Assembly (NCBI GenBank): GCA_052034085.1
Contig: JBPOJA010000026.1
Location: 414 to 64,413, forward strand
DNA: 64,000 nt
DNA from: Bacillota bacterium
GTDB taxonomy: Bacteria; Bacillota; Clostridia; Peptostreptococcales; Anaerovoracaceae
Direction: 5' to 3'
The position numbers and the translations under genes are program-made. Below the pieces are notes generated by a model. It was not told the origin of the DNA. It did not search any database and saw only the letters and a program-made list of their open reading frames with translations. Positions 6,186 through 23,820 of the stretch are shown here, piece after piece; the first letter of the stretch is position 1; every line of letters begins with the position of its first letter.

Positions 6186-7019
6186 CTAATACAACTTCGG
6201 TATGTCCACTTCCTTGTTAAAGCTGAATTCCGGTGTGGGGAATTTGCCTTCAATTGATTCCCGGCGGAATTCGTTGAGGGCATTTACCATGATTTCCCTT
6301 ATGTTGGCATACTGCTTGACGAACTTGGGTTTGAAGTCGCCGTACATGCCCAGCAGATCCTGGGTTACCAGCACCTGGCAATCAACATGGGGTCCTGCGC
6401 CGATGCCCAAAACGGGTATGCTGACCGCTTCTGCAACGGCTTTACCAACTACTGACGGAACGCATTCCAGCACGAATGAGAAGCAACCGGCTTCTTCCAG
6501 AGCCTTGGCATCTTTAATGAGTTTTGCCGCGCTTTCAGGTGTGCCCCCCTGCACTTTGAATCCGCCCAGTGAAGATGCGGTCTGAGGAGTAAGGCCGATG
6601 TGACCCATTACATTGATGCCTGCGTTGACTATGGCCTTGATGCGTGAAAGCATTTCCACTCCGCCTTCCAGCTTGATACAGTCGCAACCGGTTTCCTTGA
6701 TCAGCCTGTTGGCATTTCTCACTGCCTCTTCGTCGCTTACGTTGTATGAACCAAAGGGCATGTCGCCCACTATCCATGTGTCCGGGGCGCCTTTTACCAC
6801 GGGCCTGATGTGGTGAACCATGTCGTCCATGGTCACGGCTTCGGTGCCCTTGTAGCCCAGCATAATCATGCCCAGGGAGTCACCCACCAGAATGATTTCC
6901 ACGTCGCTTTCGTTGACGATGGAAGCCATGGTGTAGTCATAAGCCGTTACATAGCTGAATATCCTGCCTTCTTCCTTGAACTTCTTGAAATCCTGAATGG
7001 TCATTTTTGTTTTTGCCAT
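6186..7019 (-). CDS. panB: 3-methyl-2-oxobutanoate hydroxymethyltransferase
   Basis: 277 aa. The motifs TAYDY, ILVGDSLGM, GDMPFGSY and KLEGG are characteristic of PanB. Confidence 0.9.
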   Translation of the reverse strand: MAKTKMTIQDFKKFKEEGRIFSYVTAYDYTMASIVNESDVEIILVGDSLGMIMLGYKGTEAVTMDDMVHHIRPVVKGAPDTWIVGDMPFGSYNVSDEEAVRNANRLIKETGCDCIKLEGGVEMLSRIKAIVNAGINVMGHIGLTPQTASSLGGFKVQGGTPESAAKLIKDAKALEEAGCFSFVLECVPSVVGKAVAEAVSIPVLGIGAGPHVDCQVLVTQDLLGMYGDFKPKFVKQYANIREIMVNALNEFRRESIEGKFPTPEFSFNKEVDIPKLY

Positions 7020-7064
7020 TTAATATGCCTCCTTTGATTAATTGTTTCTGATTATCATAGAGTA

Positions 7065-7766
7065 TCATAACATATCATCGCCTGTTTGTATAACCATATA
7101 TTCGTGTTCAAGAAGATTGATTGACAGGATTTTGTGTCTCAGGATGTCGCCCCGGCCCAGGAGGACTTTCATGGCCTCGGCCACCTGAATGGAAGCCACC
7201 ACGGGCGGCGTAAAAGCGGGAGTGCCCAGCTCTTTTTCGATGCCTCCCTCCGTCTGGTCTCCGTAGAGTTTTTCCAGCACCCTGTCCCCGGGAAATATGA
7301 CGGCAACCTGGCCGTACCATCCTCCGATTGCTCCGTGAACCAGTGGGATTTCCTCCTTTTCGCAGGCTTTTTCCAGCACCAGCCTGGTTTCGATGTTGTC
7401 CAGGGCATCAACGACCAGGTCGTGACCTTTTATCAGATCGACGGCGTTTTCCTCTGTGATTTTCCGGTGGTGCGTGGCGACCTGCACCTCGGGATTGACC
7501 AGTTTCATCCTTTCCCGGGCTGATTCCACCTTGCTTTTTCCATGGGTAAAGTCGGTTGCCAGTATCTGCCTGTTGAAGTTTGTATCCTCAAAGACATCAT
7601 TGTCGACAACCGTCAAATGCCCTACTCCCAGTCTTCCCAGTTCTTCCAGCGCGTAACCTCCAAGTCCTCCGCAGCCTGCTATGAAAATCCGAAAGCCTTT
7701 AATCTTTTCGTTTTCCGCAGGAGAAAAGGTTTTCATGTTTCTTTCGTATCGTTTGTCCAATATCAT
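7065..7766 (-). CDS. ThiF/HesA/MoeB-family E1-like adenylyltransferase
   Basis: 233 aa. It has the Rossmann motif IAGCGGLGGYALEELGRLGVGHLTVVDNDVFEDTNFNRQ. Confidence 0.8.
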   Translation of the reverse strand: MILDKRYERNMKTFSPAENEKIKGFRIFIAGCGGLGGYALEELGRLGVGHLTVVDNDVFEDTNFNRQILATDFTHGKSKVESARERMKLVNPEVQVATHHRKITEENAVDLIKGHDLVVDALDNIETRLVLEKACEKEEIPLVHGAIGGWYGQVAVIFPGDRVLEKLYGDQTEGGIEKELGTPAFTPPVVASIQVAEAMKVLLGRGDILRHKILSINLLEHEYMVIQTGDDML

Positions 7767-7782
7767 TCCCTTTTCTACACGC

Positions 7783-9033
7783 TTAGTAAGGGCTTTTGAT
7801 AATAAATTTATTTCTGTCTGAGCAAAGATAACTCATGTTCGATGACACTTCAATATCCATGAGATGTGAAGTGTCCTGTATTTTTACGATTTTTGCATTG
7901 TTTACATCGATTTTTTCACATGTCATAATCGCAGCTCTGAGCGCTTCTTCTTCGTTATCCATTATGATGGGGATTTTACCTGCCTCCGGCTCCCCTGCTG
8001 CTATGCAGTTTGTGTAAGTAGCCTGAAGATCAATTTCATCATAAGCCTCCTTTGTGATGTAATCCGCCAGGCCCACGCCGGTGGCATTGTGATGTGTTTT
8101 TTCCGTCAATCCAGAAATAATTATCCTTTTTATCGTGGGCCCATCATAATTTCTGATTACTTCCTTATTGACTCTCCCAACAATTTTAGGATCCATCCCT
8201 GCGCCGGAAATATTTTTCCCTATCTGCTTAATAATCAACACATCTATTTCCTTGAACTGCAATTTCGGCATCAGTTTTTTACTAAGTTCGAGCAGCCGCG
8301 GCTCTTCAGTCAATATATCAGTCCCCTTCACTACTTCTATTGTATGAACAAAATCATGCGCATTTTCAACGATTGCAATTCCAAAAGGGACATTTACTTT
8401 TTCTAAAACGATTTCTGCAGCTTTTGGTATTAGCTCTCCAAAACTTGCGAAACCTTCCATATGTAGTCGGGAACAACCATTATGTTTGCCTATCCCAATT
8501 GAAAGCATTTTGCATAATCCGCTTTCAATTGGGCCTTCAAAGTCCGTGTGCTGCTTCACACGGACTATTGGTATTACAAAATCGGCTTTTAAAGCGTCCT
8601 TTGCAACATGAACGGGAATATTACCGTCAATTTTGCCTACTATCTCAGTATCCATGTTTGATACGATGGGGACTCCCATGTTTTGTTCAGTAATGCCATA
8701 GCTTTCAATTATTTTCTGTTGTTCCGAAGCTATCCCTCCGCCATGACTGCCCATTGAAGGCACAATAAATGGTTTTAGTCCATTTTCGACAAGGGAATCA
8801 ATCGTAGCCTTAACAACTATGTCCAGGCTTGCAATACCGCGGCTTCCTACTAACAAAGCAACCGTTTTTCCACTATCCAAAGTACTTAAAATGTCTTTCT
8901 TGTTGATCTGTTCTCTGACTACTGACGGTATCCTGTCAGCATCAATTTTACTGTCATCAAACAGCTGAGTTACTTTTATCATTTTCGGAAGCTTGATTTT
9001 GTAAGCTTCTTGTGGCAGTACATTCATTTCCAT
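7783..9033 (-). CDS. LarA-like (DUF2088, lactate-racemase N-terminal domain-like) protein
   Basis: 416 aa. Its size and N-terminal half (GKTVALLVGSRGIASL...PSMGSHGG) resemble DUF2088/LarA-type proteins from memory. This was not verified by search. Confidence 0.4.
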   Translation of the reverse strand: MEMNVLPQEAYKIKLPKMIKVTQLFDDSKIDADRIPSVVREQINKKDILSTLDSGKTVALLVGSRGIASLDIVVKATIDSLVENGLKPFIVPSMGSHGGGIASEQQKIIESYGITEQNMGVPIVSNMDTEIVGKIDGNIPVHVAKDALKADFVIPIVRVKQHTDFEGPIESGLCKMLSIGIGKHNGCSRLHMEGFASFGELIPKAAEIVLEKVNVPFGIAIVENAHDFVHTIEVVKGTDILTEEPRLLELSKKLMPKLQFKEIDVLIIKQIGKNISGAGMDPKIVGRVNKEVIRNYDGPTIKRIIISGLTEKTHHNATGVGLADYITKEAYDEIDLQATYTNCIAAGEPEAGKIPIIMDNEEEALRAAIMTCEKIDVNNAKIVKIQDTSHLMDIEVSSNMSYLCSDRNKFIIKSPY

Positions 9034-9062
9034 ACCTTCTCTAGGTTAAACTAATAAGAGCA

Positions 9063-10379
9063 TTATTTAATCATTGAATTCGGCAGATACAACGCTATCT
9101 GAGGGAAGATTATACATAATATCAGCGCAAGTATCTGCAACATAACGAATGGTATTACTGATCTATAAATATCGCCTATAACAATTCCTTTTGGCACAAT
9201 GCTCTTTAGGAAGAACAGGTTGAAACCAAAGGGCGGCGTCAGATAAGCCATCTGAAGGTTCAGCATGAATATCAGAGAAAACCAGATTGGGTCAAAGTCC
9301 AGTGCCTTGATGATAGGCAGATATAAAGGCGCAGTAAGGGTAATAATCGCATAGTCGTCCATTAGCATACCTAAAATAAAATTCAGTAAAAGTATACATG
9401 TAATAAACGCCCATCTGCCTCCAGGCAGTGCCAATGCTACTCTGTTAAGGACTGTATATGCCCCCATGTAATTATATACTACATTGAAAACTGATGCAGC
9501 GACCAGTATCCACAGAACCATGGCAGTAAGAGCCAACGTGCGCTTCACAAGATCCGACAGCAAAAATAAAGTTAATTTACGCTTTGCAAGGGCAATAAGC
9601 AGTGAGCCTAAAGCCCCAACTGCAGCCGCTTCGGTAGGTGTTGCTGCTCCTGTATAGATTGAACCGAGTACAACGACAATAAGTATTACCGGCCCGATTA
9701 ATGCTTTGACGGATTTCATTTTTTCCGGCCACGTTGCACGTTCTTCCAAAGGAATTGCAGGTCCCAGATTTGGATTGATATAGCATCTTATACCTATGTA
9801 CACAATATATATGCCTGCACATAGCAATCCCGGCAACACGCCAGCATAAAACAGTTTTCCGACTGAAATAGAGCCAAATTGCGCAATTATAATCATTGGA
9901 ATACTGGGTGGAATAATAATGCCCAAAACACCGCCGGCCGCTATGCAACCCAAAGCAAGCTTTTTGTCATAGCCTCTTTTTAACATCGAAGGAAGTGCAA
10001 TAAGACCCATCGTTATGGTTGCAGGCCCGCTCCCGCCGCTCATGGCTCCAAAAATTGCACAAATTATGACAGTGCCCATCGCCAGTCCACCTCGCAGGCC
10101 ACCCATCCATCTATAGAGCATCTCATATAAATCATCGGCTATGCCGGATCGCTGAAGGCAATTTGCCATAAGTAAAAACATGGCAATAGCCAAATAAGTT
10201 TCAGTCGTAAAAGTAGAGAATGCGCTGTTAGCCAAGACAAAAGTGCCGTCAATTCCCCAAATAAACAGTATCGCTACTGTAGCTACTCCTCCTAGGGCAA
10301 AAACTACGGGTTGTCCTAAGAACAGGAATATAATCATAATTCCAATTAAAACTGCAAAACTCCAGGCAGGAAATGTCAT
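9063..10379 (-). CDS. TRAP transporter large permease (DctM family)
   Basis: 438 aa polytopic membrane protein with DctM-like sequence throughout. It lies adjacent to DctQ and DctP genes. Confidence 0.9.
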   Translation of the reverse strand: MTFPAWSFAVLIGIMIIFLFLGQPVVFALGGVATVAILFIWGIDGTFVLANSAFSTFTTETYLAIAMFLLMANCLQRSGIADDLYEMLYRWMGGLRGGLAMGTVIICAIFGAMSGGSGPATITMGLIALPSMLKRGYDKKLALGCIAAGGVLGIIIPPSIPMIIIAQFGSISVGKLFYAGVLPGLLCAGIYIVYIGIRCYINPNLGPAIPLEERATWPEKMKSVKALIGPVILIVVVLGSIYTGAATPTEAAAVGALGSLLIALAKRKLTLFLLSDLVKRTLALTAMVLWILVAASVFNVVYNYMGAYTVLNRVALALPGGRWAFITCILLLNFILGMLMDDYAIITLTAPLYLPIIKALDFDPIWFSLIFMLNLQMAYLTPPFGFNLFFLKSIVPKGIVIGDIYRSVIPFVMLQILALILCIIFPQIALYLPNSMIK

Positions 10380-10396
10380 ATTATTTCTCCTTTCTC

Positions 10397-10927
10397 TTAA
10401 TAACCCATAGTCCGCACATTTTCGGACTCACCCGTAATAAGTACTATTATATCGTGTATAAGCTTGGAAATACCTTGTATAAAACACATGAACACACCAA
10501 AAGCAATTAGTGTTTTGATTGGATATAATATTGGTGCCAGCACCGAAGTAGATCTCTCACGAAAAGCCCAGGATATTTTTGCCATATCAACCATGTTATA
10601 TACTAAAAGTCCAACAAAAATAAAGAATAATATCGAAGTGAAGATGTCAACAATTGCCCTGGTTCGGACAGACCACCGTTCCCAGAAAACATCAACTTGT
10701 ACATGGCAATTATACAGCATTGCATAACCGCCGCCCATGCATCCCACCAAAGCCAATAATTGCCGGGCAATATCCTGCGCCCAAATTGTCGGGCTGTTAA
10801 AGAAATATCTGGAAACAACTTCGAAAGAGAGAACTCCGCAAATTACCAGCAAGGTCCATTTAAAGATTCTTCCGACCCAGTCATTTGCCGTATCAATAAA
10901 ATGTCTGATCTTTCTTAAGGTATTCAA
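10397..10927 (-). CDS. TRAP transporter small permease (DctQ family)
   Basis: 176 aa with 4 TM segments. It sits between the DctP and DctM genes. Confidence 0.8.
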   Translation of the reverse strand: MNTLRKIRHFIDTANDWVGRIFKWTLLVICGVLSFEVVSRYFFNSPTIWAQDIARQLLALVGCMGGGYAMLYNCHVQVDVFWERWSVRTRAIVDIFTSILFFIFVGLLVYNMVDMAKISWAFRERSTSVLAPILYPIKTLIAFGVFMCFIQGISKLIHDIIVLITGESENVRTMGY

Positions 10928-10950
10928 AAATTTTCACCACCTTTGTTTTT

Positions 10951-10989
10951 ATTATGCACATGGGAAGATTATCTCCCCATGTGCATAAT
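10951..10989 (-). promoter_or_regulatory. Intra-operon stem-loop after the TRAP binding-protein gene
   Basis: ATTATGCACATGGG-N11-CCCATGTGCATAAT, a 14-bp perfect stem in the 73-nt dctP-dctQ spacer. Confidence 0.5.
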
Positions 10990-11000
10990 AATTGGATCCT

Positions 11001-12056
11001 TTATTTGCTTTCCACCCACTTGAGTATAATATCATAGCCCGGCCCGGCTGCCGGATATTCTTTTCTGCACCTTTCAATGACAGCATCTGCCGCATCATAG
11101 AAAGGCTGTAAATTTTCTTCAGGAATCTCTGATATTTGAGTTCCATAATCTAACCCGGCTTCAATAGCACTTTTATCAAACGAAATGGATGCCTCGTAAA
11201 TGTCCATAAATATGTCCTGCATAGTTTTATTCACAATATCTTGAACTTCTTTTGGCAAAGCATTCCATGATTTCATGCTGATGCTCAGGTTAACCGGGGC
11301 GCTGCCACCAACTGCCGGTGTCACTAAATATTTAGTAACTTCCATCAGCTTTGAAGTCTCAAGTTCACATACGGTATAAATATTACCATCAATAGTTCCT
11401 AATCTCATTCCCATGTAGATATCTCCGCCTGACATTACAACAGGAGATCCGCCCAGCTCTTCAATGAACATTCCATAGGTCGTGGATGCTCTGATTTTCT
11501 TGCCTACAAAATCGCTTGCTTTGGTTACAGGGAAGTTGGTCATTATCATATATGCTCCGTTTGGCACATACATCCCAAAATAGATATCTGATTTTGCATA
11601 CTCATCCCGAATGAAATCCAGGAGTCCTGCATTGTAATAGGTGTCATATACATCCTGTCCATCCTGCCATAAGAATGGTACTCCTTGTTCCGCATATGCT
11701 GCCGGGATTAAGCCTGCAGTATGGTTCGGTGCAGTCAGCGCAGCATCCAGCAGGCCTTTTGAAAGCATTGTGGGCGCTTCATCCGGTTCACAAATTGCTC
11801 CGGGCTGAAACAATTCAAACTTGATCAATCCATCGGTAGCCTCAGTTATAGCTTTTGTTATCATCGGCATTTGAACATCCCAACATTGGTCTCCCGGTGG
11901 GTATGAGCTTTGAATTCTCCATGTTACTCCTTCAAATTCGGCAACATCTCCGCCACCACCACCGTTATCACCGCCGCCGCCGGTGCCACCGCCGCCACAT
12001 GCTGTTAAAGCAACAATCAGCATTGCAATCAGCAAAAACGATAATAATTTCTTCAT
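11001..12056 (-). CDS. TRAP transporter substrate-binding lipoprotein (DctP family), ligand unknown
   Basis: 351 aa. It has a lipobox (LTAC) followed by a Gly-rich linker (GGGGTGGGGDNGGGGGD) and then a DctP-like periplasmic binding fold sequence. Confidence 0.8.
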   Translation of the reverse strand: MKKLLSFLLIAMLIVALTACGGGGTGGGGDNGGGGGDVAEFEGVTWRIQSSYPPGDQCWDVQMPMITKAITEATDGLIKFELFQPGAICEPDEAPTMLSKGLLDAALTAPNHTAGLIPAAYAEQGVPFLWQDGQDVYDTYYNAGLLDFIRDEYAKSDIYFGMYVPNGAYMIMTNFPVTKASDFVGKKIRASTTYGMFIEELGGSPVVMSGGDIYMGMRLGTIDGNIYTVCELETSKLMEVTKYLVTPAVGGSAPVNLSISMKSWNALPKEVQDIVNKTMQDIFMDIYEASISFDKSAIEAGLDYGTQISEIPEENLQPFYDAADAVIERCRKEYPAAGPGYDIILKWVESK

Positions 12057-12127: not shown

Positions 12128-13288
12128 TTACTCAAATGCTTCTTCCAGTATTTCCAGTACGTCATCAGATGTAATCTTCACAGGATTCAATGCGAGCAAT
12201 CTGTAGGCCATTGTTCCCTCCACCAAATCGGGGAACATTTCCCTGGTTATCCCTACTTCTTTTAGTTTCATGGGTATGCCGGCATCTTCCGCCAGCTTAA
12301 AAACAATTTCTGATGATTTTGCGGCAATTTCCTCTTCAGCCAATCCGCTTTCGTCCACTCCCAGGGCTATGGCAATATCCTTAAATTTCCTGATATTGCC
12401 CTTTATATTTTTCTTCATAGCATACGGTAAAATCAGGCTGTTGGCAACCCCATGGGGAACGTCTGCCACTGCTCCCATTGTTTGTGCTATGCCATGAACG
12501 ACACCCAGGCCACCATTCATAAAGGCTACTCCGGCAATAGAGCTTGCCAGAGCCATCTTTCCCCTTGCCTCGAGATCTGCCCTGTCATTTATGGCTTTGA
12601 TCAAATTTTCACCTATTAATTTGATGGCATATAGCCCCATCATGTCACTCAGAGGTCCCGCATTCAACGAAACATATGATTCTATTGCATGGGTTAATGC
12701 GTCCATACCGGTGGTTCCCGTGACGAACTTCGGCATATCTACATGCAATTTGGGATCAATTACAGCTAGTGCCGGGAACAGATAATCATGGGTGACGGAG
12801 ACTTTTACACCCCTGGCTTCGTCATTCACAACCGATACCGGTGTCATTTCACTGCCACTGCCGGCTGTGGTCGGCACGCATATTAAAGGCATTGTAGGAT
12901 TGGTCACTGTCTTGCTACCCCCGAAAAGATAGTCGGCAATCGACCCATCATGAGTCTGCATCAGACACATTGCCTTAGCCGCATCTATTCTGCTGCCGCC
13001 TCCGACTGCCAGAACTGCGTCGGCATTGCTGGCCTTAAGGACTGCTGAAGCTTCATCAATCTGGTTAACAGAAGGCTCTGCCGCCAAATTGCTGTAAACC
13101 TCATAATCCATGCCGGCATTTTCAAGGGATTTTTTTATCTGCAAAACACCTTCGGTTTTACCTACTGTCGGGCCTGTTACAATAAAAATCTTTTTGTATC
13201 CCATACTCTTCAATGTGTCCCCGATTTTCTCCGCAGCACCGGTTCCGTACATTATCCTTGTAGGCATTTTAAACATAAAATCTTTCAT
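12128..13288 (-). CDS. Iron-containing alcohol dehydrogenase (4-hydroxybutyrate dehydrogenase-like)
   Basis: 386 aa with Fe-ADH motifs (AVGGGSRIDAAKAM, metal His cluster DALTHAIE, VHG). Confidence 0.9.
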   Translation of the reverse strand: MKDFMFKMPTRIMYGTGAAEKIGDTLKSMGYKKIFIVTGPTVGKTEGVLQIKKSLENAGMDYEVYSNLAAEPSVNQIDEASAVLKASNADAVLAVGGGSRIDAAKAMCLMQTHDGSIADYLFGGSKTVTNPTMPLICVPTTAGSGSEMTPVSVVNDEARGVKVSVTHDYLFPALAVIDPKLHVDMPKFVTGTTGMDALTHAIESYVSLNAGPLSDMMGLYAIKLIGENLIKAINDRADLEARGKMALASSIAGVAFMNGGLGVVHGIAQTMGAVADVPHGVANSLILPYAMKKNIKGNIRKFKDIAIALGVDESGLAEEEIAAKSSEIVFKLAEDAGIPMKLKEVGITREMFPDLVEGTMAYRLLALNPVKITSDDVLEILEEAFE

Positions 13289-16036: not shown

Positions 16037-17221
16037 CTAATCATACAAAGCTTCCAGTATGACTGCAGTTCCCATTCCGCCGCCTGCGCACAGGGTTGCA
16101 AGTCCATACTTGTTGCCGCGCCTTCTCATTTCATAAAGCAGAGCTATCATTATCCTTGTGCCGGTTGCTCCGACCGGATGCCCCAAAGAAATTCCGCCGC
16201 CATTTACGTTGGTAATCTCCCTGTTTAGCCCAAGAGCTTTTTCACAGCCTATATACTGGGCGGCAAATGCTTCATTGACCTCTACCAGTTCCAGGTCTTC
16301 CAGTTTCAGTCCGGCTTTTCCCAAAGCCTTTTCAGTTGCACTGACGGGACCAAGCCCCATTATTTCCGGTTCGATGCCCGTGGTAGCAACAGATACGATT
16401 CTTGCCAATATGGGAACGCCAAGTTCCCTTGCCTTGTCCTCTGCCAGTAAAATCACACCGGAAGCGGCATCATTCATTCCGGATGCATTTCCTGCGGTAA
16501 CGGTTCCGTCATCCTTGAATGCCGGCTTCAGTTTCGCCAGGCTTTCTAACGTAACATCCCGTTTTGGATATTCATCCGTGTCATAAACCACATCACCTTT
16601 ACGGCCTTTTACGGTAACCGGGACAATTTCTTCTTTAAATTTGCCCGCATCCTGGGCTGCCACAGCTCTCTGCTGTGAGAGAAGCGCATACTCGTCCTGT
16701 TCCTCTCTGGAAATGCTGAATTTTTCCGCGATGTTTTCTGCGGTTATTCCCATACCCGGCCCGATACCGAGATTAGTCAGAGAATCCCACATGGAGTCCC
16801 TCAGTTCCATGTGACCGAACTTCTGTCCGTATCTGGCCTTAAATGCCATGTGCGGGGCTGTACTCATGCTGTCAGCCCCTCCCGCCATAATGCAGTCGGC
16901 CTCTCCTGCCCTTATCTGATAAAATCCCAGCTGTACGGAAGACATGGAAGATGTGCAGTTTCTGTGAATGGTGATGCCGGGAACGCTGGTCGGCAATCCC
17001 GCTTTTACCAGGGCCACTCTTGCCAGGTTGTTTTCCATGTAAGTCCTTTGATAGTTGCAACCCCAGATAACATCATCTATTATGGCAGGATTTATTCCAG
17101 CCCTTTCAACCAGAGATGACATTACCGGTATAGACAAATCCAGCGAAGTAATGTTCATAAACTGCCCGCCCATAGTTCCTATAGGTGTTCTGGCTGCCGA
17201 AACAATAACTACATTTCTCAC
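16037..17221 (-). CDS. Acetyl-CoA C-acetyltransferase (thiolase II)
   Basis: 394 aa. The motifs are NRNCTSSM (active-site Cys), NVNGGGISLGHPVGATG and CAGGGMG. Confidence 0.9.
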   Translation of the reverse strand: MRNVVIVSAARTPIGTMGGQFMNITSLDLSIPVMSSLVERAGINPAIIDDVIWGCNYQRTYMENNLARVALVKAGLPTSVPGITIHRNCTSSMSSVQLGFYQIRAGEADCIMAGGADSMSTAPHMAFKARYGQKFGHMELRDSMWDSLTNLGIGPGMGITAENIAEKFSISREEQDEYALLSQQRAVAAQDAGKFKEEIVPVTVKGRKGDVVYDTDEYPKRDVTLESLAKLKPAFKDDGTVTAGNASGMNDAASGVILLAEDKARELGVPILARIVSVATTGIEPEIMGLGPVSATEKALGKAGLKLEDLELVEVNEAFAAQYIGCEKALGLNREITNVNGGGISLGHPVGATGTRIMIALLYEMRRRGNKYGLATLCAGGGMGTAVILEALYD

Positions 17222-17254: not shown

Positions 17255-18022
17255 TTATTCACCTTTATAAACCGGTTTTCTCTTTTCCACAAAAGCGCTC
17301 ATGCCTTCTTTTTGATCTTTGGTGTTGAAAAGTCCGGCCCAGTTGCTGCCTTCTATTTCCACGGCTTTTTTAACATCCGCTTCCAGCAGGCCTTCCCTTA
17401 TTGTCTTTTTTGCAATCTTCTGTGCAATGGTGGCTCCTATGGCCAGCTTTTCCGCCCAATTCATGGCATCCTCAAAGCAGGCTCCTTTTGCGCTGACTTT
17501 GTTTACAAGACCTGCTTTTTGCGCATCCTCTGCGCTGATTATGGTGCCGAGCAGAACCAGTTCCATTGCCTTGGCTTCTCCTGCAATTCGCGCCGCTCTG
17601 GCGGTTCCCCCCGCCCCGGGCATTATGCCCAGTGTTATTTCGGGAAAGCCCAATTTGGCGTCTTCATCGGCAATCCTCATATCGCAGGCCAAAGCCAGCT
17701 CAAATCCTCCGCCCAGTGCATATCCTTCAATTGCTGCTATGGTTGGAAATTCGAGATCTTCAATCTTGTTAAAAGTTTCTGAGAAGGCGAAGGCTTTGGC
17801 TTCCTCTTCATTAAAATCAAGCATGCTTTTGATATCTGCGCCCGCTGCAAAGTTTTTTTGACTGTGAATGACCAGGACCTTGACGGTTTCATCATTTTTT
17901 ATGCGCTCGATTGCCTCATCCAGTTCATCCACAAGCTCCCTGTTAAGAGCATTGTAAGCCTCCGGCCTTTGTATGCTGAGCACTGCAATGTTATTTTCGT
18001 TTCTGATGTTGATATATGACAT
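17255..18022 (-). CDS. Enoyl-CoA hydratase (crotonase family)
   Basis: 255 aa. It contains FAAGADI, GYALGGGFELALACD and PEITLGIMPGAGGT. Confidence 0.9.
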   Translation of the reverse strand: MSYINIRNENNIAVLSIQRPEAYNALNRELVDELDEAIERIKNDETVKVLVIHSQKNFAAGADIKSMLDFNEEEAKAFAFSETFNKIEDLEFPTIAAIEGYALGGGFELALACDMRIADEDAKLGFPEITLGIMPGAGGTARAARIAGEAKAMELVLLGTIISAEDAQKAGLVNKVSAKGACFEDAMNWAEKLAIGATIAQKIAKKTIREGLLEADVKKAVEIEGSNWAGLFNTKDQKEGMSAFVEKRKPVYKGE

Positions 18023-18036
18023 CTGTTTCCCCTCAA

Positions 18037-18900
18037 TTAATACTCATAGAAGCCTTTTCCGGTTTTCCTTCCATACTCGCCTCTGGCATACATTTCTGTG
18101 AGGCAGGCTGCAGGCCTGTCTTCAGGTTTTTCAGTCATCCTGAATTTTTCCATATAAACGTTATACTCCAGATCTATCCCTGTCATATCCAGAAGTTCAA
18201 GAGGTCCCATAGGATGACCCAGTCCGCCCTTTACTGCCTTGTCTATGTCTTCCACCGACGCGATTTCCATATCCACAAGATAGCAGGCCTCTCTTGTGAG
18301 AGCGCTGAAAATCCTGTTAACAATGAAGCCATAAATTTCCTTTTCAACCAGAACCGGCGTTTTGCCTATAGCCTTTGTAAATTCATAAACCGTGTTTACG
18401 GTTTCTTCAGATGAATGAGGCCCTTTTACAACTTCAACTATCTTCATTACCAAAGCCGGATTAAAAAAGTGCATATTACATACATTTTCAGGTCTTCTCA
18501 CTACGTCACAGAATCTTGAACTTACTATGTAGGAACTGTTGCTTGCGTAAATAGCATGTTCCGGCGCAAATTTGTCGGCTTCTTTCAGAACTTTTCTCTT
18601 GATTTCCAAAACATCTGCGACTGTTTCCACTATGATGTCGGCATTTTTACATGCCTCTTCAAGGCTTGTGGTGAAAGTGAGCCTGCCTTTGATTTCATCT
18701 GTTTCCGCTTGAGAAAACTTCTCTTTCGCTACTGCCTTTTCAAACCACCCGTCTGCATATTTTTGCGCCTTGTCCACTGTTTCCTGCCTTCTTGAATAAC
18801 AGACGGTTTCAAAACCATTTATGGCTATTTGCATCGCAATCTGATTTCCCATCAGACCTGCTCCCAATACTGCTGCTTTCTTAATCTCCATATTTTGCAC
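18037..18900 (-). CDS. 3-hydroxyacyl-CoA (3-hydroxybutyryl-CoA) dehydrogenase
   Basis: 287 aa. It has the NAD-binding motif VLGAGLMGNQIA and the signatures HFFNP and GFIVNR. Confidence 0.9.
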   Translation of the reverse strand: MQNMEIKKAAVLGAGLMGNQIAMQIAINGFETVCYSRRQETVDKAQKYADGWFEKAVAKEKFSQAETDEIKGRLTFTTSLEEACKNADIIVETVADVLEIKRKVLKEADKFAPEHAIYASNSSYIVSSRFCDVVRRPENVCNMHFFNPALVMKIVEVVKGPHSSEETVNTVYEFTKAIGKTPVLVEKEIYGFIVNRIFSALTREACYLVDMEIASVEDIDKAVKGGLGHPMGPLELLDMTGIDLEYNVYMEKFRMTEKPEDRPAACLTEMYARGEYGRKTGKGFYEY

Positions 18901-18923
18901 CCTTTCTCCTTTTTTAAATAATG

Positions 18924-19694
18924 CTAATTATCCATCTCTTTAGCATATATCGCTGCGCCTAACGCACCCATTGTCTGTGGGCTTTCCAACCTTACTATGT
19001 CGTAACCTGTTTCCGTTTCCAACGCTTTTATTACACTTTCGTTTAAAGCCACACCCCCCGACATTACAATCATGGGGGTTAACCCGATGCGATTGATAAG
19101 ACCTGCAACTCTTTGAGCTATCGATTTATGAGCTCCCAAAGCTACGTCTTCGATTTTCTTTCCTGCCGCCAGCTGGGAAATCATCTCAGATTCAGCAAAA
19201 ACGGTACAGGTGCTGCTGATGGTTACTCCATCCTTGCCTCTTTCCGCCATATCGGACAGCCCGTCAATGGTTGTATCCAAAACCCTGCCCATGACCTCAA
19301 GGAATCTGCCTGTGCCGGCTGCACATTTCTCGTTCATGACGAAATTTTTAACATTGCCGTTTTCATCTATCGATATGACTTTTGCATCCTGGCCTCCTAT
19401 GTCGATAATGGTCCTGGCTTCCGGAACAGTTTTGATTACTCCTTTTGCGTGGCAGCTTATTTCGGTAATCTGCTTGTCTGCCCCTTCAAAAGTCATACGT
19501 CCATAACCTGTGACCACGGTCTTTTTTATATCGTCGCGCTGAATGCCTGCCATTTTAAGTGCTTCATCTATCACTTTCTGAGGGCCTCTGCTACCTGTTC
19601 CTATATTGATTACCGCCTGCCCGGCAATATTTCCATCTTTGTCCAAAATTACTGCTTTAGAGGACGACGAGCCTATATCCAGTCCCAGATACAT
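18924..19694 (-). CDS. 2-hydroxyacyl-CoA dehydratase activase (BcrAD/BadFG ATPase, HgdC/HadI-like)
   Basis: 256 aa. It contains LGLDIGSSSSKAV, DIGGQD and the cluster-ligand context NEKCAAGTGRFLE. Confidence 0.9.
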   Translation of the reverse strand: MYLGLDIGSSSSKAVILDKDGNIAGQAVINIGTGSRGPQKVIDEALKMAGIQRDDIKKTVVTGYGRMTFEGADKQITEISCHAKGVIKTVPEARTIIDIGGQDAKVISIDENGNVKNFVMNEKCAAGTGRFLEVMGRVLDTTIDGLSDMAERGKDGVTISSTCTVFAESEMISQLAAGKKIEDVALGAHKSIAQRVAGLINRIGLTPMIVMSGGVALNESVIKALETETGYDIVRLESPQTMGALGAAIYAKEMDN

Positions 19695-19719
19695 ATAGTT
19701 TCTCCTTTTGTAAATTATT

Positions 19720-22070: not shown

Positions 22071-22161
22071 TTTTACCCTCCCGGATACGACGATAGGCAA
22101 ATGCGAATATTTTTTATGTTATTGTTGCTGTTACTACTATGTCTACTATGTTTTCTATCGT

Positions 22162-22178
22162 CGCAAAAGTTGTGCCAA
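22162..22178 (-). promoter_or_regulatory. Sigma-54 (-24/-12) promoter
   Basis: The minus strand reads TTGGCAC-AACTT-TTGCG, matching the consensus TGGCAC-N5-TTGC exactly. It lies about 90 nt upstream of the dehydratase start and downstream of a sigma-54 EBP gene. Confidence 0.75.
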
Positions 22179-22240
22179 ATGAAGGTTCAGCTAAGAATGT
22201 GTTGAAAATGTGTATTCTTTAATCTTTTCTGCATTAAAAC

Positions 22241-22276
22241 AGGCGGGTTCGATGCGTTTGCGCATCATATCCGCCT
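22241..22276 (-). terminator. Nested hairpin after the EBP gene (possible terminator and/or EBP site)
   Basis: AGGCGG...GATGCG-TTTG-CGCATC...CCGCCT. It sits 37 nt after the stop at 22313, and the trailing T-run is short. Confidence 0.45.
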
Positions 22277-22312
22277 AATTTCTGTGTTCTTTTGGCATTT
22301 ATGCATCAATTG

Positions 22313-23695
22313 CTAAATGCCATACTTTTTCAGTTTTCTTATTATGGTCGATTGATCTATTTTCAATGCTTTTGACATTTTGCGACTGCTGCCATACTGG
22401 GATTTTGCCCTTTCCAGAATAAACTTTTCATAATCATCAACTAATTCTTTAAATGATTTGCTTTCACCCGGACTGCAGGGATCTTCCCTTTTTGTGTCCC
22501 TGAACCATGGCAGGTCTGATATTTGAAGATATTCATTATTGCTGACCACCACCATGTTTTCAATAACGTTTTTCAGCTGTCTGATATTTCCTTTCCAGCT
22601 GTTCATTTTCAACTCTTCAAGCACCTCGTACGTGAGTCTTTTGTTCTGCCCGTACTGCTTATTGAACTGATTCAGAAAACCAAGCGCCAAGGGCATAATT
22701 TCTTCTTTTCTTTCCCTTAGCGGCGGGATGTCTATTGTTATAACATTTAACCTGTAGTACAGATCTTCGCGGAAATCGCCGGAAGCCACCATTTCTCTCA
22801 GATCCTTGTTTGAAGCAGCAATAACACGTATGTCCACCGGAATATATTCTGTTGATCCCACACGGTTAATGGTCCTTGATTCCAATGCCCTCAGTAATTT
22901 TACCTGCAGGTTTAAACTCATCTCTCCTATTTCATCCAGTAAGAGCGTTCCGCCGTTTGCGGCTTCAATTAAACCTTCTTTGCCTCCTTTCGCAGCTCCG
23001 GTAAAAGCACCTTCGGCATAACCGAAAAGTTCAGACTCCAGCAATGATTCCGGAATGGAACCACAGTTTACGGCAATGAAAGGTTTGTTCCTTCTCAGCA
23101 TGCTGTTGTCATGGATAAATCGGGCCAACACATCTTTGCCCACCCCGGACTCTCCAGAAATCAGTATCGTTGTGTTAAAATCTCCCACCTTTTTGGCAAG
23201 AGAAAAAATTTCTTCCATAACCCTGTTTATTACTACAATTCCATGACTTTCTCCGCTTTTCTCAGCATTTAGCTGGTCAAAATATATCCTTTCCATTTTC
23301 CTGGCATCGTCAAGTTCTTCTTTGAGAGCATATATTTCAGACATGTCTCTTGTATTGACAACTACTCTTTTTATAGTTCCGTCTTCCTGGAAAATGGGAG
23401 TTCCTGTAACAATGATATTTTTGCCATGCCTGGTTGTGTGGTGCATGGTAACCGGCCTCCCCTGTTCAATAGCCAGCAGAACAACTGAGTTTTTCATCCA
23501 GACAGGATTAATGAGCTCACGAACATTGTGACCTAAAAGCTCATCCTTTTGTATATTAGTATTTCTTACGTAAGATTGATTAACAAGGAGAACTTTTCCA
23601 TCCCCGTCAGTGACCATTATTCCATCAAAAGAACCTTCTATAATTTCCTGTAGTTCTTCCAGGCTTTTATCTTTATTTTTGTCTGGCCCAAACAT
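22313..23695 (-). CDS. Sigma-54-dependent transcriptional activator (PAS - AAA+ - HTH)
   Basis: An N-terminal PAS-like domain is followed by GESGVGKD (Walker A), GAFTGA and ELFGY (sigma-54 contact), then a C-terminal Fis-type HTH (SSRKMSKALKIDQSTIIRKLKKYG). The start is taken at the internal ATG at 23695; 23725 is also possible. Confidence 0.9.
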   Translation of the reverse strand: MFGPDKNKDKSLEELQEIIEGSFDGIMVTDGDGKVLLVNQSYVRNTNIQKDELLGHNVRELINPVWMKNSVVLLAIEQGRPVTMHHTTRHGKNIIVTGTPIFQEDGTIKRVVVNTRDMSEIYALKEELDDARKMERIYFDQLNAEKSGESHGIVVINRVMEEIFSLAKKVGDFNTTILISGESGVGKDVLARFIHDNSMLRRNKPFIAVNCGSIPESLLESELFGYAEGAFTGAAKGGKEGLIEAANGGTLLLDEIGEMSLNLQVKLLRALESRTINRVGSTEYIPVDIRVIAASNKDLREMVASGDFREDLYYRLNVITIDIPPLRERKEEIMPLALGFLNQFNKQYGQNKRLTYEVLEELKMNSWKGNIRQLKNVIENMVVVSNNEYLQISDLPWFRDTKREDPCSPGESKSFKELVDDYEKFILERAKSQYGSSRKMSKALKIDQSTIIRKLKKYGI

Positions 23696-23820
23696 GATGT
23701 CACGATATCCTTTCCTGCAAACCACACCACAAGTTTATTATGGTACAGTTTACTATAATAAAAAAATTCATTCAACACATGTCATAAGAATAGGGTATTA
23801 CGCAGAGATGACGGAGAGCA

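Follow-up and report, generated by a model that had tools for sequence, protein, structure and literature searches.

The locus raises the question of whether its fifteen co-directional minus-strand genes form one regulated pathway and, if so, which compound that pathway would break down. All fifteen open reading frames and the activator gene upstream of them were found where the original prediction had placed them, and its gene labels agree with the Pfam and NCBIfam assignments (Table 1). The intergenic gaps are −4, 25, 23, 14, 33, 20, 46, 30, 71, 73, 17, 29, 16, and 45 nt, reproducing the expected range of −4 to 73 nt, and a strong Shine-Dalgarno sequence precedes every gene of the block. For the first gene, encoding a HadB-like protein, the best start is GTG at 22070 (Shine-Dalgarno GGGAGGG), as had been proposed, and in this form the alignment to Clostridium difficile HadB begins at residue 4; a longer TTG start at 22100 was rejected in its favor. 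Downstream of the sigma-54 promoter, no intergenic terminator-like site occurs before the one 3′ of panB, and the other minus-strand terminator-like matches in the scan are all within coding sequence. Judged by its sequence, the block is a genuine operon switched on by its own regulator, with a core for the breakdown of an acid to acetyl-CoA. The host would be an anaerobic gut- or digester-type bacterium, which would use the operon on a small hydroxy or amino acid via an oxygen-sensitive radical dehydratase. The gene combination had not been matched to a described pathway in the original prediction, and no published description of the gene set was found in the literature searched; its core is widespread in related bacteria, yet no published account of it was found. 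The explanation that we tentatively favor, with a probability of about 0.45 for the whole, is a regulated 15.9-kb island carrying a radical-dehydration core and an omega-amino/hydroxy feeder module, next to native thiF and panB genes.

Table 1. Features of the locus in the direction of transcription. Positions refer to the window, the whole 64-kb stretch of DNA that was analyzed.
Feature	Positions	Strand	Basis or remark
ThiS-like remnant, ~65 codons, upstream edge of putative island	23821..24015	-	Pfam ThiS 25.0 bits, over 22.5 cut-off
Enhancer-binding protein, PAS - AAA+ with GAFTGA - HTH_50, 470 aa	22313..23725	-	Pfam
Candidate activator-binding site 1 (UAS1), GATGCATAAATGCCAA	22292..22307	-	imperfect palindrome, read from sequence
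Candidate activator-binding site 2 (UAS2), TGATGCGCAAACGCATC	22251..22267	-	perfect palindrome, TGATGCR-N4-YGCATC match
Hairpin after activator gene, AGGCGG...CCGCCT then GTTTTAATG	22241..22276	-	UAS2 lies inside
Sigma-54 -24/-12 promoter, TGGCAC-AACTT-TTGC	22163..22177	-	perfect element, conserved in relatives
2-Hydroxyacyl-CoA dehydratase alpha subunit, HadB-like, 408 aa	20844..22070	-	Pfam HGD-D
2-Hydroxyacyl-CoA dehydratase beta subunit, HadC-like, 375 aa	19720..20847	-	Pfam HGD-D
ATP-dependent dehydratase activase, HadI/HgdC-like, 256 aa	18924..19694	-	Pfam BcrAD_BadFG
3-Hydroxyacyl-CoA dehydrogenase, Hbd-like	18037..18900	-	Pfam 3HCDH_N, 3HCDH
Enoyl-CoA hydratase, crotonase-like	17255..18022	-	Pfam ECH_1
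Thiolase (acetyl-CoA C-acyltransferase)	16037..17221	-	Pfam Thiolase_N, Thiolase_C
Family I CoA-transferase, But/AbfT type	14640..16016	-	Pfam AcetylCoA_hydro, AcetylCoA_hyd_C
Class III PLP enzyme, GABA-aminotransferase-like, first feeder gene	13319..14593	-	Pfam Aminotran_3
Iron-containing alcohol dehydrogenase (Fe-ADH)	12128..13288	-	Pfam Fe-ADH, ADH_Fe_C
TRAP solute-binding protein, divergent DctP	11001..12056	-	Pfam DctP, 131 bits
Stem-loop between DctP and DctQ, 20-bp perfect	10949..10991	-	dG -30 kcal/mol, no T tract
TRAP small membrane subunit DctQ	10397..10927	-	Pfam DctQ
TRAP large membrane subunit DctM	9063..10379	-	Pfam DctM; TIGR00786 314 bits, over 268 cut-off
LarA-like nickel-pincer (NPN) dependent 2-hydroxyacid isomerase, NCBIfam 'group 22'	7783..9033	-	NF052515
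ThiF/MoeB-like adenylyltransferase	7065..7766	-	Pfam ThiF
PanB, ketopantoate hydroxymethyltransferase	6186..7019	-	TIGR00222 299 bits, over 207 cut-off
Rho-independent terminator 3′ of PanB	6140..6164	-	terminator scan

The sigma-54 promoter predicted near the first gene is present 93–107 nt upstream of the start codon. An exact search for TGGCA[CT]N5TTGC on both strands of the window returned this element as the single match. One-mismatch matches in the window were not above chance (4 found, 5.3 expected), and the significance of the promoter therefore rests on its position and conservation rather than on a count. Indeed, the element lies 40–150 nt upstream of the HadB-like gene in related loci L001, L003, L004, L008, L010, L012, L014–L016, L018–L020, L024, L030, L033, L038, L039, L043–L046, and L048. 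The activator has the domain composition originally proposed, with Pfam matches to PAS, Sigma54_activat, AAA_lid_14, and HTH_50 and the GAFTGA motif in the translation. Its top NCBIfam match is PrdR, but it was rejected as a PrdR ortholog because the score of 407 bits is under the cut-off of 795; its own orthologs (55%–76% identity) stand before the cluster in related loci. The centers of the two candidate activator-binding sites are 41 nt apart, with identical spacing at both promoter regions of L030. An equivalent of UAS1 is present in 13 related loci, and the UAS2 motif, TGATGCR-N4-YGCATC, which has just two exact occurrences in the window, recurs in most related loci at the equivalent spot, with 90–170 nt between it and the downstream −24 element. 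More than 13 loci, belonging to several families, have both the sigma-54 element and the two palindromes at the corresponding site. UAS2 is embedded in the hairpin that had been predicted for the activator gene, and in related loci a hairpin resembling a terminator lies between the two candidate sites and the promoter. This comparative evidence makes a strong case for control by sigma-54 and a dedicated activator: the PAS enhancer-binding protein would bind the two palindromes just downstream of its own gene and, once bound, would turn on the sigma-54 promoter of thirteen catabolic genes. No rpoN gene was seen in the 64-kb window.

A search of relatives for the same neighborhood, as had been suggested, recovered the core across Anaerovoracaceae, Oscillospiraceae, and Clostridium. 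The gene order activator-HadB-HadC-activase-Hbd-crotonase-thiolase-CoA-transferase is kept in about 24 loci, at 50%–87% identity. Only these genes are universally conserved, and the minimal version (L039/L040) consists of them and an MFS transporter. The HadB-like subunit scores 550 bits with the NCBIfam HadB model, under its cut-off of 750, and aligns to PDB 3o3m_A over residues 4–402 (457 bits, ∼55% identity, one gap of one residue); it retains the Cys-containing stretches CxYAR, CCNNICN, CWPY, and SCKLM. The HadC-like gene overlaps the alpha gene by 4 nt, and its product is likewise under the cut-off of its model (460 bits; cut-off 700). The activase passes TIGR00241, "acyl-CoA dehydratase activase" (263 bits; cut-off 125), and the thiolase passes TIGR01930 (459 bits; cut-off 240). 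The Hbd-like protein is under the cut-offs of the canonical 3-hydroxybutyryl-CoA dehydrogenase models, as is the crotonase-like protein for the short-chain enoyl-CoA hydratase model (256 bits; cut-off 394). The CoA-transferase belongs to the family of butyryl-CoA:acetate and 4-hydroxybutyrate CoA-transferases; it is under the cut-off of TIGR03948 (506 bits; cut-off 675), and its top PDB matches are 4-hydroxybutyrate CoA-transferases (272 bits). The core reaction sequence is well supported. The CoA-transferase would load CoA onto an (R)-2-hydroxy acid, and the [4Fe-4S] dehydratase, primed by its ATP-dependent activase, would remove water through a ketyl radical to give a 2-enoyl-CoA. This would then be hydrated by the crotonase, oxidized by the Hbd-like dehydrogenase, and cleaved by the thiolase, giving acetyl-CoA plus an acyl-CoA shortened by two carbons. 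Classical Stickland reductive branches, by contrast, reduce the enoyl-CoA.

The core is conserved, and comparison of the loci indicates that the aminotransferase, Fe-ADH, TRAP, and LarA-like genes are an exchangeable feeder module. A sigma-54 promoter precedes the aminotransferase gene in L030 and L017, and in L030/L034 the series aminotransferase-Fe-ADH-DctPQM-LarA-like-OYE has its own promoter and palindrome pair. The claim that the whole block is one inducible regulon thus stands in part. The analysis supports one sigma-54/activator regulon for catabolism of an imported acid, covering its uptake, its activation with CoA, radical dehydration, and a branch resembling beta-oxidation; promoter, candidate sites, and gene order are kept in many related loci. 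The block is nevertheless no single unit in function or evolution, and in the nearest relative the feeder has its own promoter. Orthologs of the aminotransferase at 60% identity or more adjoin core or feeder genes in 14 of 16 metagenome loci, the exceptions being L050 and L052. The class III enzyme scores 628 bits with PRK08117 (cut-off 574), and its best PDB matches are PuuE/GabT at 312 bits; class III amino-acid racemases reach ∼300 bits, and this near-equal score counts against the role proposed for the enzyme below. The Fe-ADH is under every NCBIfam equivalog cut-off and has methanol dehydrogenase, 1,3-propanediol dehydrogenase, and lactaldehyde reductase as PDB neighbors. DctP has a counterpart of 81% identity in L030/L034, and its PDB matches are weak (≤65 bits) and give no clue to the ligand. 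The LarA-like protein passes NF052515 (486 bits; cut-off 400), its AlphaFold model has a pLDDT of 90, and the top 19 matches of a fold search of the PDB are all LarA-family enzymes. Its gene is kept 3′ of the TRAP genes in the nearest relative, and in Sinanaerobacter a homolog adjoins a second cluster, of the HgdAB type. In related loci, genes for a D-2-hydroxyacid dehydrogenase and RidA come directly after the cluster; the source genome and its nearest relative have the LarA-fold isomerase instead. These arrangements point to a 2-hydroxy acid as the central intermediate.

For the feeder module of the source genome we infer the following roles. The TRAP system would take the substrate in, and the GABA-aminotransferase-like enzyme and Fe-ADH would convert a terminal amino group via an aldehyde to a hydroxyl, so that no lactam could form once the acid is CoA activated. 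The nickel-pincer enzyme would supply the (R)-2-hydroxy acid that the dehydratase needs by inverting the (S) enantiomer. Our leading guess for the substrate is a C4–C6 2-hydroxy acid whose terminal group is amino or hydroxy and whose precursor would be a diamino or imino acid, for example 2,4-diaminobutyrate/homoserine, ornithine/proline, or lysine/pipecolate. In that case an omega-hydroxyacyl-CoA would be the second product, namely 4-hydroxybutyryl-CoA where a lineage has a genuine AbfD linked to the cluster. Homologies to GABA aminotransferases, aldehyde/alcohol Fe-ADHs, and 4-hydroxybutyrate CoA-transferases are consistent with this proposal, and the layout of L030/L034 and the linkage of the aminotransferase argue for a feeder that acts as one unit with one transporter. 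The 4-hydroxybutyryl-CoA link is suggested by a true AbfD inside the operon of L033 (846 bits to 1u8v) and an AbfD-like gene behind its own sigma-54 motif adjoining the cluster of C. aromativorans. No AbfD is encoded in the window, and among the loci seen so far none with both aminotransferase and Fe-ADH has AbfD within 10 kb; its occurrence in loci lacking this pair counts against the proposal. An alpha-deaminating enzyme and a 2-oxoacid reductase are absent from the cluster of the source genome. Literature on omega-amino-2-hydroxy acids, searched by name, gave only synthetic or prebiotic chemistry; these acids, which the proposal needs, are no known metabolites, a further point against it.

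Two C4 substrates could instead converge on crotonyl-CoA and be split into two acetyl-CoA by crotonase, Hbd, and thiolase, which we consider unlikely. One branch would start from 2-hydroxybutyrate (or 2-oxobutyrate from threonine or methionine) and use the LarA-like racemase, CoA-transferase, and HadBC-like dehydratase; the other would bring in GABA through the aminotransferase, Fe-ADH as 4-hydroxybutyrate dehydrogenase, CoA-transferase, and an AbfD encoded elsewhere. Every enzyme would then perform the reaction of its nearest characterized relatives (GABA aminotransferase, 4-hydroxybutyrate CoA-transferase, AbfD), and a LarA homolog specialized for 2-hydroxybutyrate exists (PMC11770544). Anaerovoracaceae very commonly have AbfD, some relatives add Bcd-EtfBA (the classical crotonyl-CoA reductase), and in L033 the core stands together with AbfD and a reductase of the LdhA/VanH type, with two methionine-gamma-lyase-type genes nearby. 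However, in the nearest relative a single transcription unit with a single transporter makes up the feeder and mixes the supposed GABA genes with the 2-hydroxyacid isomerase, and the distribution of AbfD described above also counts against this reading. Hbd, crotonase, and thiolase all fall short of the cut-offs set for canonical C4 enzymes. In addition, the commonest variant of the cluster has, beside Fe-ADH, a D-2-hydroxyacid dehydrogenase whose type, that of glyoxylate/hydroxypyruvate reductases, suggests a polar 2-oxo acid.

A plain alpha-amino-acid route appears quite improbable. Here, the class III enzyme would make a 2-oxo acid that Fe-ADH reduces to the 2-hydroxy acid, and TRAP and the LarA-like enzyme would also scavenge free 2-hydroxy acid. 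In a glutamate/2-hydroxyglutarate version, glutaconyl-CoA would be hydrated and oxidized to 3-oxoglutaryl-CoA, which would yield CO2 and acetoacetyl-CoA, and this loss of CO2 would make a glutaconyl-CoA decarboxylase unnecessary. Hydroxyacid-oxoacid transhydrogenase, a member of the Fe-ADH family, converts 2-oxoglutarate to (R)-2-hydroxyglutarate; GABA-type aminotransferases use the 2-oxoglutarate/glutamate pair, and dicarboxylates are common cargo of TRAP systems, all of which would suit this route. 2-Hydroxyglutarate racemases are also among the known LarA functions (PMC11770544). The route is free of exotic metabolites and accounts for L006, L007, L018, and L043, which have the aminotransferase and Fe-ADH but no 2-oxo- or 2-hydroxy-specific enzyme and fit better if these two make the 2-hydroxy acid themselves, a point against the favored proposal. 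Against it, the nearest relatives of the Fe-ADH are aldehyde/alcohol enzymes, and Fe-ADH would be redundant beside the dedicated dehydrogenase of the commonest variant. Moreover, the alpha subunit has the size of HadB (408 aa) and shares ∼55% identity with the crystallized C. difficile enzyme, which acts on an uncharged aliphatic substrate, and neither glutaconate CoA-transferase nor glutaconyl-CoA decarboxylase was seen in the cluster of the window or among the annotated neighbors in related loci.

The favored reading leaves thiF and panB outside the pathway. The LarA-like, ThiF, and PanB genes had been regarded as three unexpected tail genes; the first travels with the system, but the other two occur in none of the related loci, and in the nearest relative, which keeps TRAP and LarA-like genes, an OYE-type flavoprotein stands in their place. 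Their GC3 (ThiF 0.58, PanB 0.63) is that of the flanking genome, unlike the 0.37–0.51 of the island genes (0.37 for the LarA-like gene adjoining thiF). GC3 steps sharply at both island edges, and island genes differ from the rest of the window (0.444 versus 0.520, Mann-Whitney p = 0.00026). At the upstream edge lies the ThiS-like remnant, with no ATG, GTG, or TTG start and no C-terminal GG. From composition and synteny, an island of 15.9 kb (7783–23725) appears to have been inserted between the thiS-like remnant and thiF; no direct repeats flanking it were found. ThiF and PanB are thus most likely native neighbors, which may be read through from the operon. A single fifteen-gene pathway, in which, for example, PanB would serve as aldolase for a 4-hydroxy-2-oxo acid and a carboxylate would be adenylated by ThiF, would agree with the shared strand, the gaps of 16 and 45 nt, and the lack of an intergenic terminator-like site before the 3′ end of panB. 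Synteny, GC3, the thiS-like remnant, and the score of PanB above its equivalog cut-off all speak against it, and we regard it as very improbable.

It is extremely improbable that the HGD-D pair works like benzoyl-CoA reductase, as an ATP-dependent reductase with a dienoyl- or enoyl-CoA as its substrate, for example in a 5-aminovalerate or GABA pathway without the usual flavin dehydratase: the Pfam family is the same, there are weak matches to benzoyl-CoA reductase subunits and the double-cubane reductase, and the aminotransferase, Fe-ADH, and CoA-transferase trio resembles the upper part of such pathways, but the scores of 550 and 460 bits with the HadB and HadC models compare with at most 166 bits for reductase subunit models, one activase gene is present rather than two ATPase subunits, and D-2-hydroxyacid dehydrogenases or a 2-hydroxyacid isomerase accompany the pair.

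Within the block, the stem-loop between the DctP and DctQ genes is the only strong internal structure, as had been noted. It is a probable mRNA stabilizer or processing site, and L034 has a different inverted repeat in the same gap.

The 15 consecutive minus-strand genes of the original prediction were recovered in the ORF listing, running from 22100 or 22070 down to 6186 with intergenic gaps of -4 to 73 nt and a strong ribosome-binding site at each gene; for the first gene, the GTG codon at 22070 is preferred as start. As had been claimed, internal structure is sparse. The sole strong structure is a 20-bp stem between the DctP and DctQ genes, which lacks a T tract, and a rho-independent terminator 3′ of PanB is the only intergenic terminator-like site on the coding strand. 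No RNA family from Rfam was found in 5500-24600 and no tRNA in the window. The genes of the TRAP system are encoded together, with Pfam matches for all three components. The remainder of the window is housekeeping in content (hrcA-grpE-dnaK-dnaJ, lepA, recO, era, ppdK, and others), and the cluster proteins find their best matches in Anaerovoracaceae MAGs.

Features of the island and its surroundings, with Pfam and NCBIfam assignments (window coordinates; UAS, candidate activator-binding palindrome)
Feature	Position	Strand	Description
Island (candidate insertion)	7783-23725		15.9 kb
ThiS-like remnant	23821-24015	minus	~65 codons; between ferritin and activator genes
Activator	22313-23725	minus	470 aa; PAS / sigma-54-interaction / HTH_50
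UAS1	22292-22307		imperfect palindrome
UAS2	22251-22267		perfect palindrome; one of only two exact motif matches in window
Sigma-54 element	22163-22177		TGGCAC-AACTT-TTGC
Block genes 1-3		minus	HadB-like and HadC-like (both HGD-D), then BcrAD_BadFG activase
Block genes 4-7		minus	3-hydroxyacyl-CoA dehydrogenase, crotonase, thiolase, AcetylCoA_hydro-type CoA-transferase
Block genes 8-12		minus	class III aminotransferase, Fe-ADH, DctP, DctQ, DctM
Block gene 13		minus	passes NCBIfam "nickel pincer cofactor-dependent isomerase, group 22"
Block genes 14-15		minus	ThiF/MoeB-like, bona fide PanB
Second perfect palindrome	15227-15243		inside CoA-transferase gene
M28/PA-domain peptidase	27297-29561	plus	754 aa; near island
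Two adjacent large ORFs	31181-35222	minus	301 and 1037 aa; no Pfam family at E <= 1e-5
483-aa ORF	48471-49922	plus	opposite to neighbors; GC3 0.37; no Pfam match

The block had been predicted to lie under a sigma-54 promoter with an adjacent enhancer-binding protein, and both are borne out: the -24/-12 element is perfect, the neighboring activator carries GAFTGA in its translation (Sigma54_activat, 224 bits, with AAA_lid_14 and HTH_50), and the arrangement is conserved across loci. The element is the sole exact match to a consensus of the TGGCAC-N5-TTGC type in 64 kb. One-mismatch matches in the window are at chance level, and the promoter argument therefore rests on conservation. Related loci were collected by a genome scan with the CoA-transferase (24 loci), a metagenome scan with the aminotransferase, and homologue look-ups. 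The position of the element is kept in >20 of them, 40-150 nt upstream of the HadB-like gene wherever this gene and that of the activator are adjacent. Directly 3′ of the activator stop codon, most related loci have two TGATGCR-N4-YGCATC palindromes. Those of the window lie 75-145 nt upstream of the -24 element (upstream activator sequences being expected ~80-200 bp from the promoter), and their centers are 41 nt apart, a spacing also present at both promoters of the nearest relative. The phylogenetic footprint formed by the element and the palindromes provides good evidence that the neighboring activator drives the sigma-54 promoter. No rpoN was found among the window ORFs scanned, and a table of clostridial sigma-54 regulons held no operon matching this cluster. 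The second perfect copy of the palindrome (TGATGCATATTTGCATC), within the CoA-transferase gene, was considered as an internal enhancer, which seems the less likely reading: four related loci (L014, L020, L021, and L022) have near-identical palindromes in their CoA-transferase genes, at an unchanged codon offset, and no sigma-54 motif lies downstream of it in the window. It is probably a coding coincidence.

A tBLASTn search of all loci with 16 window proteins showed that the order activator-HadB-HadC-activase-Hbd-Crt-thiolase-CoA-transferase is universal. This core was found in Anaerovoracaceae, Oscillospiraceae, Clostridium aromativorans, Sinanaerobacter, and others at 50%-87% identity, with the same gene order in about two dozen loci, and >100 protein clusters are at least 69% identical to the HadB-like α subunit. 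Both HGD-D subunits score ~270 bits to PF06050, and their genes overlap by 4 nt. The activase, a single BcrAD_BadFG-type ATPase, passes TIGR00241 (263 bits against a cut-off of 125). Equivalog level is missed by both dehydratase subunits, with 550 bits against 750 for the HadB model and 460 against 700 for the HadC model. The α subunit aligns with the crystallized enzyme at ~55% identity, interrupted only once by a gap of one residue, and the predicted dehydratase is, on these scores, a relative of 2-hydroxyisocaproyl-CoA dehydratase, not that enzyme itself. The CoA-transferase present belongs to a different family from HadA. No D-2-hydroxyacid dehydrogenase was found in the window, which has the LarA-like isomerase; such dehydrogenases are present in related loci. 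Taken together, dehydratase and activase, 2-hydroxy-acid partners, CoA-transferase, and a full set of hydratase, dehydrogenase, and thiolase indicate by homology and context that the core would convert an (R)-2-hydroxyacyl-CoA to a 2-enoyl-CoA and then to acetyl-CoA and a shorter acyl-CoA. Known 2-hydroxyacyl-CoA dehydratase systems reduce or decarboxylate the enoyl-CoA (PMC6615313, PMC8473912), and sending it to β-oxidation-like cleavage would be a departure from them.

Among described systems, the cluster comes closest to ldhA-hadAIBC-acdB-etfBA of Clostridioides difficile, the operon for reductive Stickland metabolism of leucine, with its regulator LeuR (PMC6615313). Common to both are a sigma-54 promoter with a dedicated enhancer-binding protein, a HadB/HadC-type dehydratase (~55% identity in the α subunit) with an ATP-dependent activase, and the activation of an (R)-2-hydroxy acid by a CoA-transferase. 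This transferase is of family I, But/AbfT type, in the window and is the family III HadA in C. difficile, whose operon also includes LdhA, absent from the window. Crotonase, Hbd, and thiolase take the place of acyl-CoA dehydrogenase and Etf, which argues for cleavage of the enoyl-CoA to acetyl-CoA and not for its reduction. The class III aminotransferase, Fe-ADH, TRAP system, and LarA-like isomerase are additions in the window.

Clostridium aminobutyricum ferments 4-aminobutyrate with gabT, abfH, abfT, and abfD, and Clostridium viride ferments 5-aminovalerate. Analogous to these fermentations, the window combines a class III ω-aminotransferase, an Fe-ADH, and an AbfT-family CoA-transferase with crotonase, Hbd, and thiolase downstream, and AbfD is linked in some relatives. 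In contrast, the window has neither AbfD (no match in 64 kb by tblastn with AbfD of the related locus L033) nor the flavin 5-hydroxyvaleryl-CoA dehydratase, its operon is led by a 2-hydroxyacyl-CoA dehydratase and activase, and a 2-hydroxyacid isomerase or, in related loci, D-2-hydroxyacid dehydrogenases are attached. AbfD may be encoded at another place in the genome. From its gene content, the cluster appears to take over the upper part of the fermentation of GABA or of 5-aminovalerate. The hydroxyglutarate pathway (hgdH, gctAB, hgdCAB, gcdABCD) is the "glutarate pathway" of butyrate-pathway surveys. It has in common with the cluster an HGD-D pair with activase and a product that enters crotonase, Hbd, and thiolase or Bcd-Etf, and automated annotation would probably file the cluster there. 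However, the window lacks GctAB, glutaconyl-CoA decarboxylase, and HgdH, and its α subunit is HadB-sized and HadB-like; neither GctAB nor the decarboxylase was found among the cluster genes, the other window ORFs scanned, or the neighbor families annotated in related loci. No paper describing the combination was found, in keeping with the claim that it is not a described pathway, and nothing relevant emerged from literature searches that covered the combination itself, 2-hydroxybutyryl-CoA, these dehydratases in Anaerovoracaceae, and the hypothetical intermediates by name.

The genes that follow the core vary between loci, and five arrangements were distinguished. In variant (a), the core is accompanied by an aminotransferase and Fe-ADH, a D-2-hydroxyacid dehydrogenase of glyoxylate-reductase type, RidA, a transporter, and an amine dehydrogenase; the last is heteromeric, of FAD/Fe-S type, and its catalytic subunit is closest to Pyrococcus L-proline dehydrogenase. 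Variant (b) combines an aminotransferase, to which Fe-ADH may be added, with a TRAP system and one or two Amidohydro_3 enzymes, and variant (c) has an aminotransferase and Bcd-EtfBA. Variant (d), that of the window and its nearest relative, consists of aminotransferase, Fe-ADH, TRAP, and LarA-like genes. Variant (e) is without aminotransferase and Fe-ADH and has either an LdhA/VanH-type reductase with a genuine AbfD (846 bits to 1u8v) or only an MFS transporter. In the nearest relative, whose HadB-like protein is 85% identical, the 370-nt gap between CoA-transferase and aminotransferase genes contains a further palindrome pair together with another sigma-54 element. The same gap in the window is 46 nt long and promoterless, and because of this, what are predicted to be two units under one activator in the nearest relative would be fused in the window. 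The proposal of a single sigma-54 regulon is supported for the conserved core and for the uptake and feeder genes of the window; the block itself is modular, and ThiF and PanB probably fall outside the pathway.

The aminotransferase is closest to GabT/PuuE, the Fe-ADH to aldehyde/alcohol enzymes, and the CoA-transferase to 4-hydroxybutyrate CoA-transferases, a likeness at family level; none reaches the equivalog cut-off for GABA/4-hydroxybutyrate functions. Against the PDB, the TRAP binding protein gives weak matches (<=65 bits) to lactate, ectoine, polyol, and other binders, and hence no clue to the ligand. In the related locus L008, a ThDP enzyme (15327-17027) of the acetolactate-synthase/oxalyl-CoA-decarboxylase/2-hydroxyacyl-CoA-lyase group directly follows RidA and is itself followed by an SNF-type transporter; it could provide an alternative fate for the 2-hydroxyacyl-CoA. 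Two Oscillospiraceae loci (L003, 16655-18820; L004, 16465-18627) encode homologues of the M28/PA-domain peptidase near the island, in each case some kilobases downstream of the related cluster, and the pathway may be loosely associated with peptide degradation.

In the nearest relative, too, the LarA-like gene follows those of the TRAP system, and it is itself followed by a gene for an OYE-type flavoprotein. The window ORF is 416 aa long and has no exact-protein match; the database form has 414 aa. For its AlphaFold model (pLDDT 90), the top 19 Foldseek matches are all LarA-family enzymes, with E-values of 3.6e-10 to 2e-6 and probability 1.00. Residues R63, H95, H160, K173, and H189 are invariant in 28 homologues and are spaced like the cofactor-binding and catalytic residues R75, H108, H174, K184, and H200 of LarA (numbering from PMC11770544). 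The protein shares the fold of the LarA superfamily (PMC7583248, PMC11770544) and passes the NCBIfam group 22 cut-off. However, it is only 11%-16% identical to the LarA-family structures matched, gives only a weak Lar_N Pfam match, and has Thr-Asp after the second catalytic histidine, where characterized LarA groups have Phe-Phe, Glu-Val, or Tyr-Phe. It had no match among PDB sequences, no mention of "group 22" or LarAH22 was found in the LarA papers, and no larB, larC, or larE was found among the window ORFs scanned. Homologues with 55%-59% identity have different surroundings: in Sinanaerobacter, one adjoins a second cluster, HgdAB-activase-Crt-Hbd-thiolase-CoA-transferase-Fe-ADH, and in Anaerovorax and Hornefia they belong to alcohol/aldehyde-dehydrogenase blocks. 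Given its conserved place after the TRAP genes, these contexts, the modeled fold, and the residue spacing, the gene is counted as part of the system, in which it would supply the (R)-2-hydroxy acid.

The second Sinanaerobacter cluster (L028, 13189-21153) encodes thiolase, Hbd, Crt, HgdA, HgdB, activase, a FabA-like protein, CoA-transferase, Fe-ADH, and an SDR; it is differently ordered and only 35%-71% identical to the window genes. Its neighbors are a LarA-like gene and the gene of an aldehyde:ferredoxin oxidoreductase, the latter accompanied by a ThiS-like gene. LarA-like homologues of Anaerovorax odorimutans (L027), Sinanaerobacter (L028), and Hornefia butyriciproducens (L041) lie in a different conserved block of aldehyde dehydrogenase, 403-aa Fe-ADH, SDR, SSF transporter, small-protein, LarA-like, and Zn-ADH genes. 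Sigma-54 activators and KDPG-aldolase and kinase genes are found nearby, and AbfD adjoins in Hornefia. This block looks like another uncharacterized hydroxy-acid or polyol pathway.

The reading that best accounts for the cluster, with a probability of roughly 0.45, is that it degrades one substrate, a 2-hydroxy acid whose terminal amine would be turned into an alcohol before CoA activation. Free ω-aminoacyl-CoAs cyclize. A single bifunctional substrate is favored because the feeder genes, one transporter, and the isomerase share one transcription unit in the nearest relative. Within this reading, the core chemistry is probably correct, and the specific feeder logic is put forward tentatively. 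The chain may be of C4, C5, or C6 length. That some lineages have AbfD points to 4-hydroxybutyryl-CoA as a product further down the pathway. In Clostridium aromativorans (L010), an AbfD-like gene (3-627) divergent from that of the activator has its own sigma-54 motif upstream (TGGCACAAGTCTTGCT), and AbfD appears to belong to the same regulon there.

Alternatively, the cluster could serve as a C4 hub in which 2-hydroxybutyrate and GABA or 4-hydroxybutyrate converge on crotonyl-CoA. Each enzyme would then perform its textbook reaction and the AbfD-containing locus L033 would be accounted for, yet a feeder unit with a single transporter fits poorly, as does the absence of AbfD within 10 kb in aminotransferase-type loci; we consider this less likely. 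A more far-reaching reading, of low probability, is an aminomutase-free anaerobic route for diamino or imino acids, unrecognized so far, with two radical dehydratases in series. Lysine/pipecolate, ornithine/proline, or 2,4-diaminobutyrate/homoserine would be the candidates. The terminal amine would become an alcohol and the α position an (R)-hydroxyl, and the HadBC type would act first and AbfD second on one carbon skeleton, with 4-hydroxybutyryl-CoA from thiolysis or enoyl reduction as the AbfD substrate and acetyl-CoA as the end product. If so, ω-amino-2-hydroxy acids and 2,ω-dihydroxyacyl-CoAs would be new metabolic intermediates. A further rival, likewise of low probability, is a plain α-amino-acid or glutamate/2-hydroxyglutarate route, which would account for the variants that have no other 2-oxo or 2-hydroxy enzyme and would oblige the Fe-ADH to act as a 2-oxoacid reductase, an unusual role. 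A path from β-alanine via 3-hydroxypropionyl-CoA and acryloyl-CoA to lactoyl-CoA, with the dehydratase reversed, was rejected since the universal Hbd and thiolase would be without a role.

Amino-acid fermentation, both in the gut and in anaerobic digesters, has 2-hydroxyacyl-CoA dehydratases as its signature enzymes, and to our knowledge all characterized dehydratase systems route the enoyl-CoA to reduction or decarboxylation. Here, the dehydratase is coupled to a β-oxidation round and to an ω-aminotransferase/alcohol-dehydrogenase pair and, in some lineages, further to AbfD or a nickel-pincer isomerase. The module is conserved, putatively controlled by sigma-54, and widespread in uncultured amino-acid fermenters. 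With its substrate identified, Anaerovoracaceae and Oscillospiraceae would gain a fermentation pathway and a very divergent LarA group its first physiological role, and butyrate-pathway calls in metagenomes, which would assign these genes to the glutarate pathway, could be corrected. The palindrome pair and promoter form a ready-made reporter for an inducer search, and the substrate is directly testable.

The original prediction had also placed three tail genes in the regulon. The LarA-like gene is retained there by its conservation in the nearest relative; ThiF and PanB were found in no related locus and resemble the flanks in third-position GC (GC3), with 0.58 and 0.63 against 0.61 for the flanking ferritin, 0.58 for MATE, and 0.37-0.51 for island genes. 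Mean GC3 is 0.444 in island genes and 0.520 in the rest of the window (p = 0.00026). The ThiS-like remnant passes the Pfam ThiS threshold, has no ATG, GTG, or TTG start, and ends in ADGE, not in a C-terminal GG. Its location at the opposite end of the island from ThiF suggests a split thiS-thiF pair, and the simplest reading is that the island was inserted between the two genes. No direct repeats of at least 9 nt were found at the island borders. By these indications, ThiF and PanB would not be pathway genes; they are probably read through from the island promoter. Catabolism of pantoate or pantothenate, at which PanB hinted, was rejected, since PanB shows no conservation alongside the system and pantoyl-CoA lacks a β-hydrogen that could be eliminated. 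Elsewhere in the window, small membrane-type ORFs, Yip1-like or unassigned, and a GNAT protein come after the two adjacent large ORFs, and the 483-aa ORF may be another foreign insertion.
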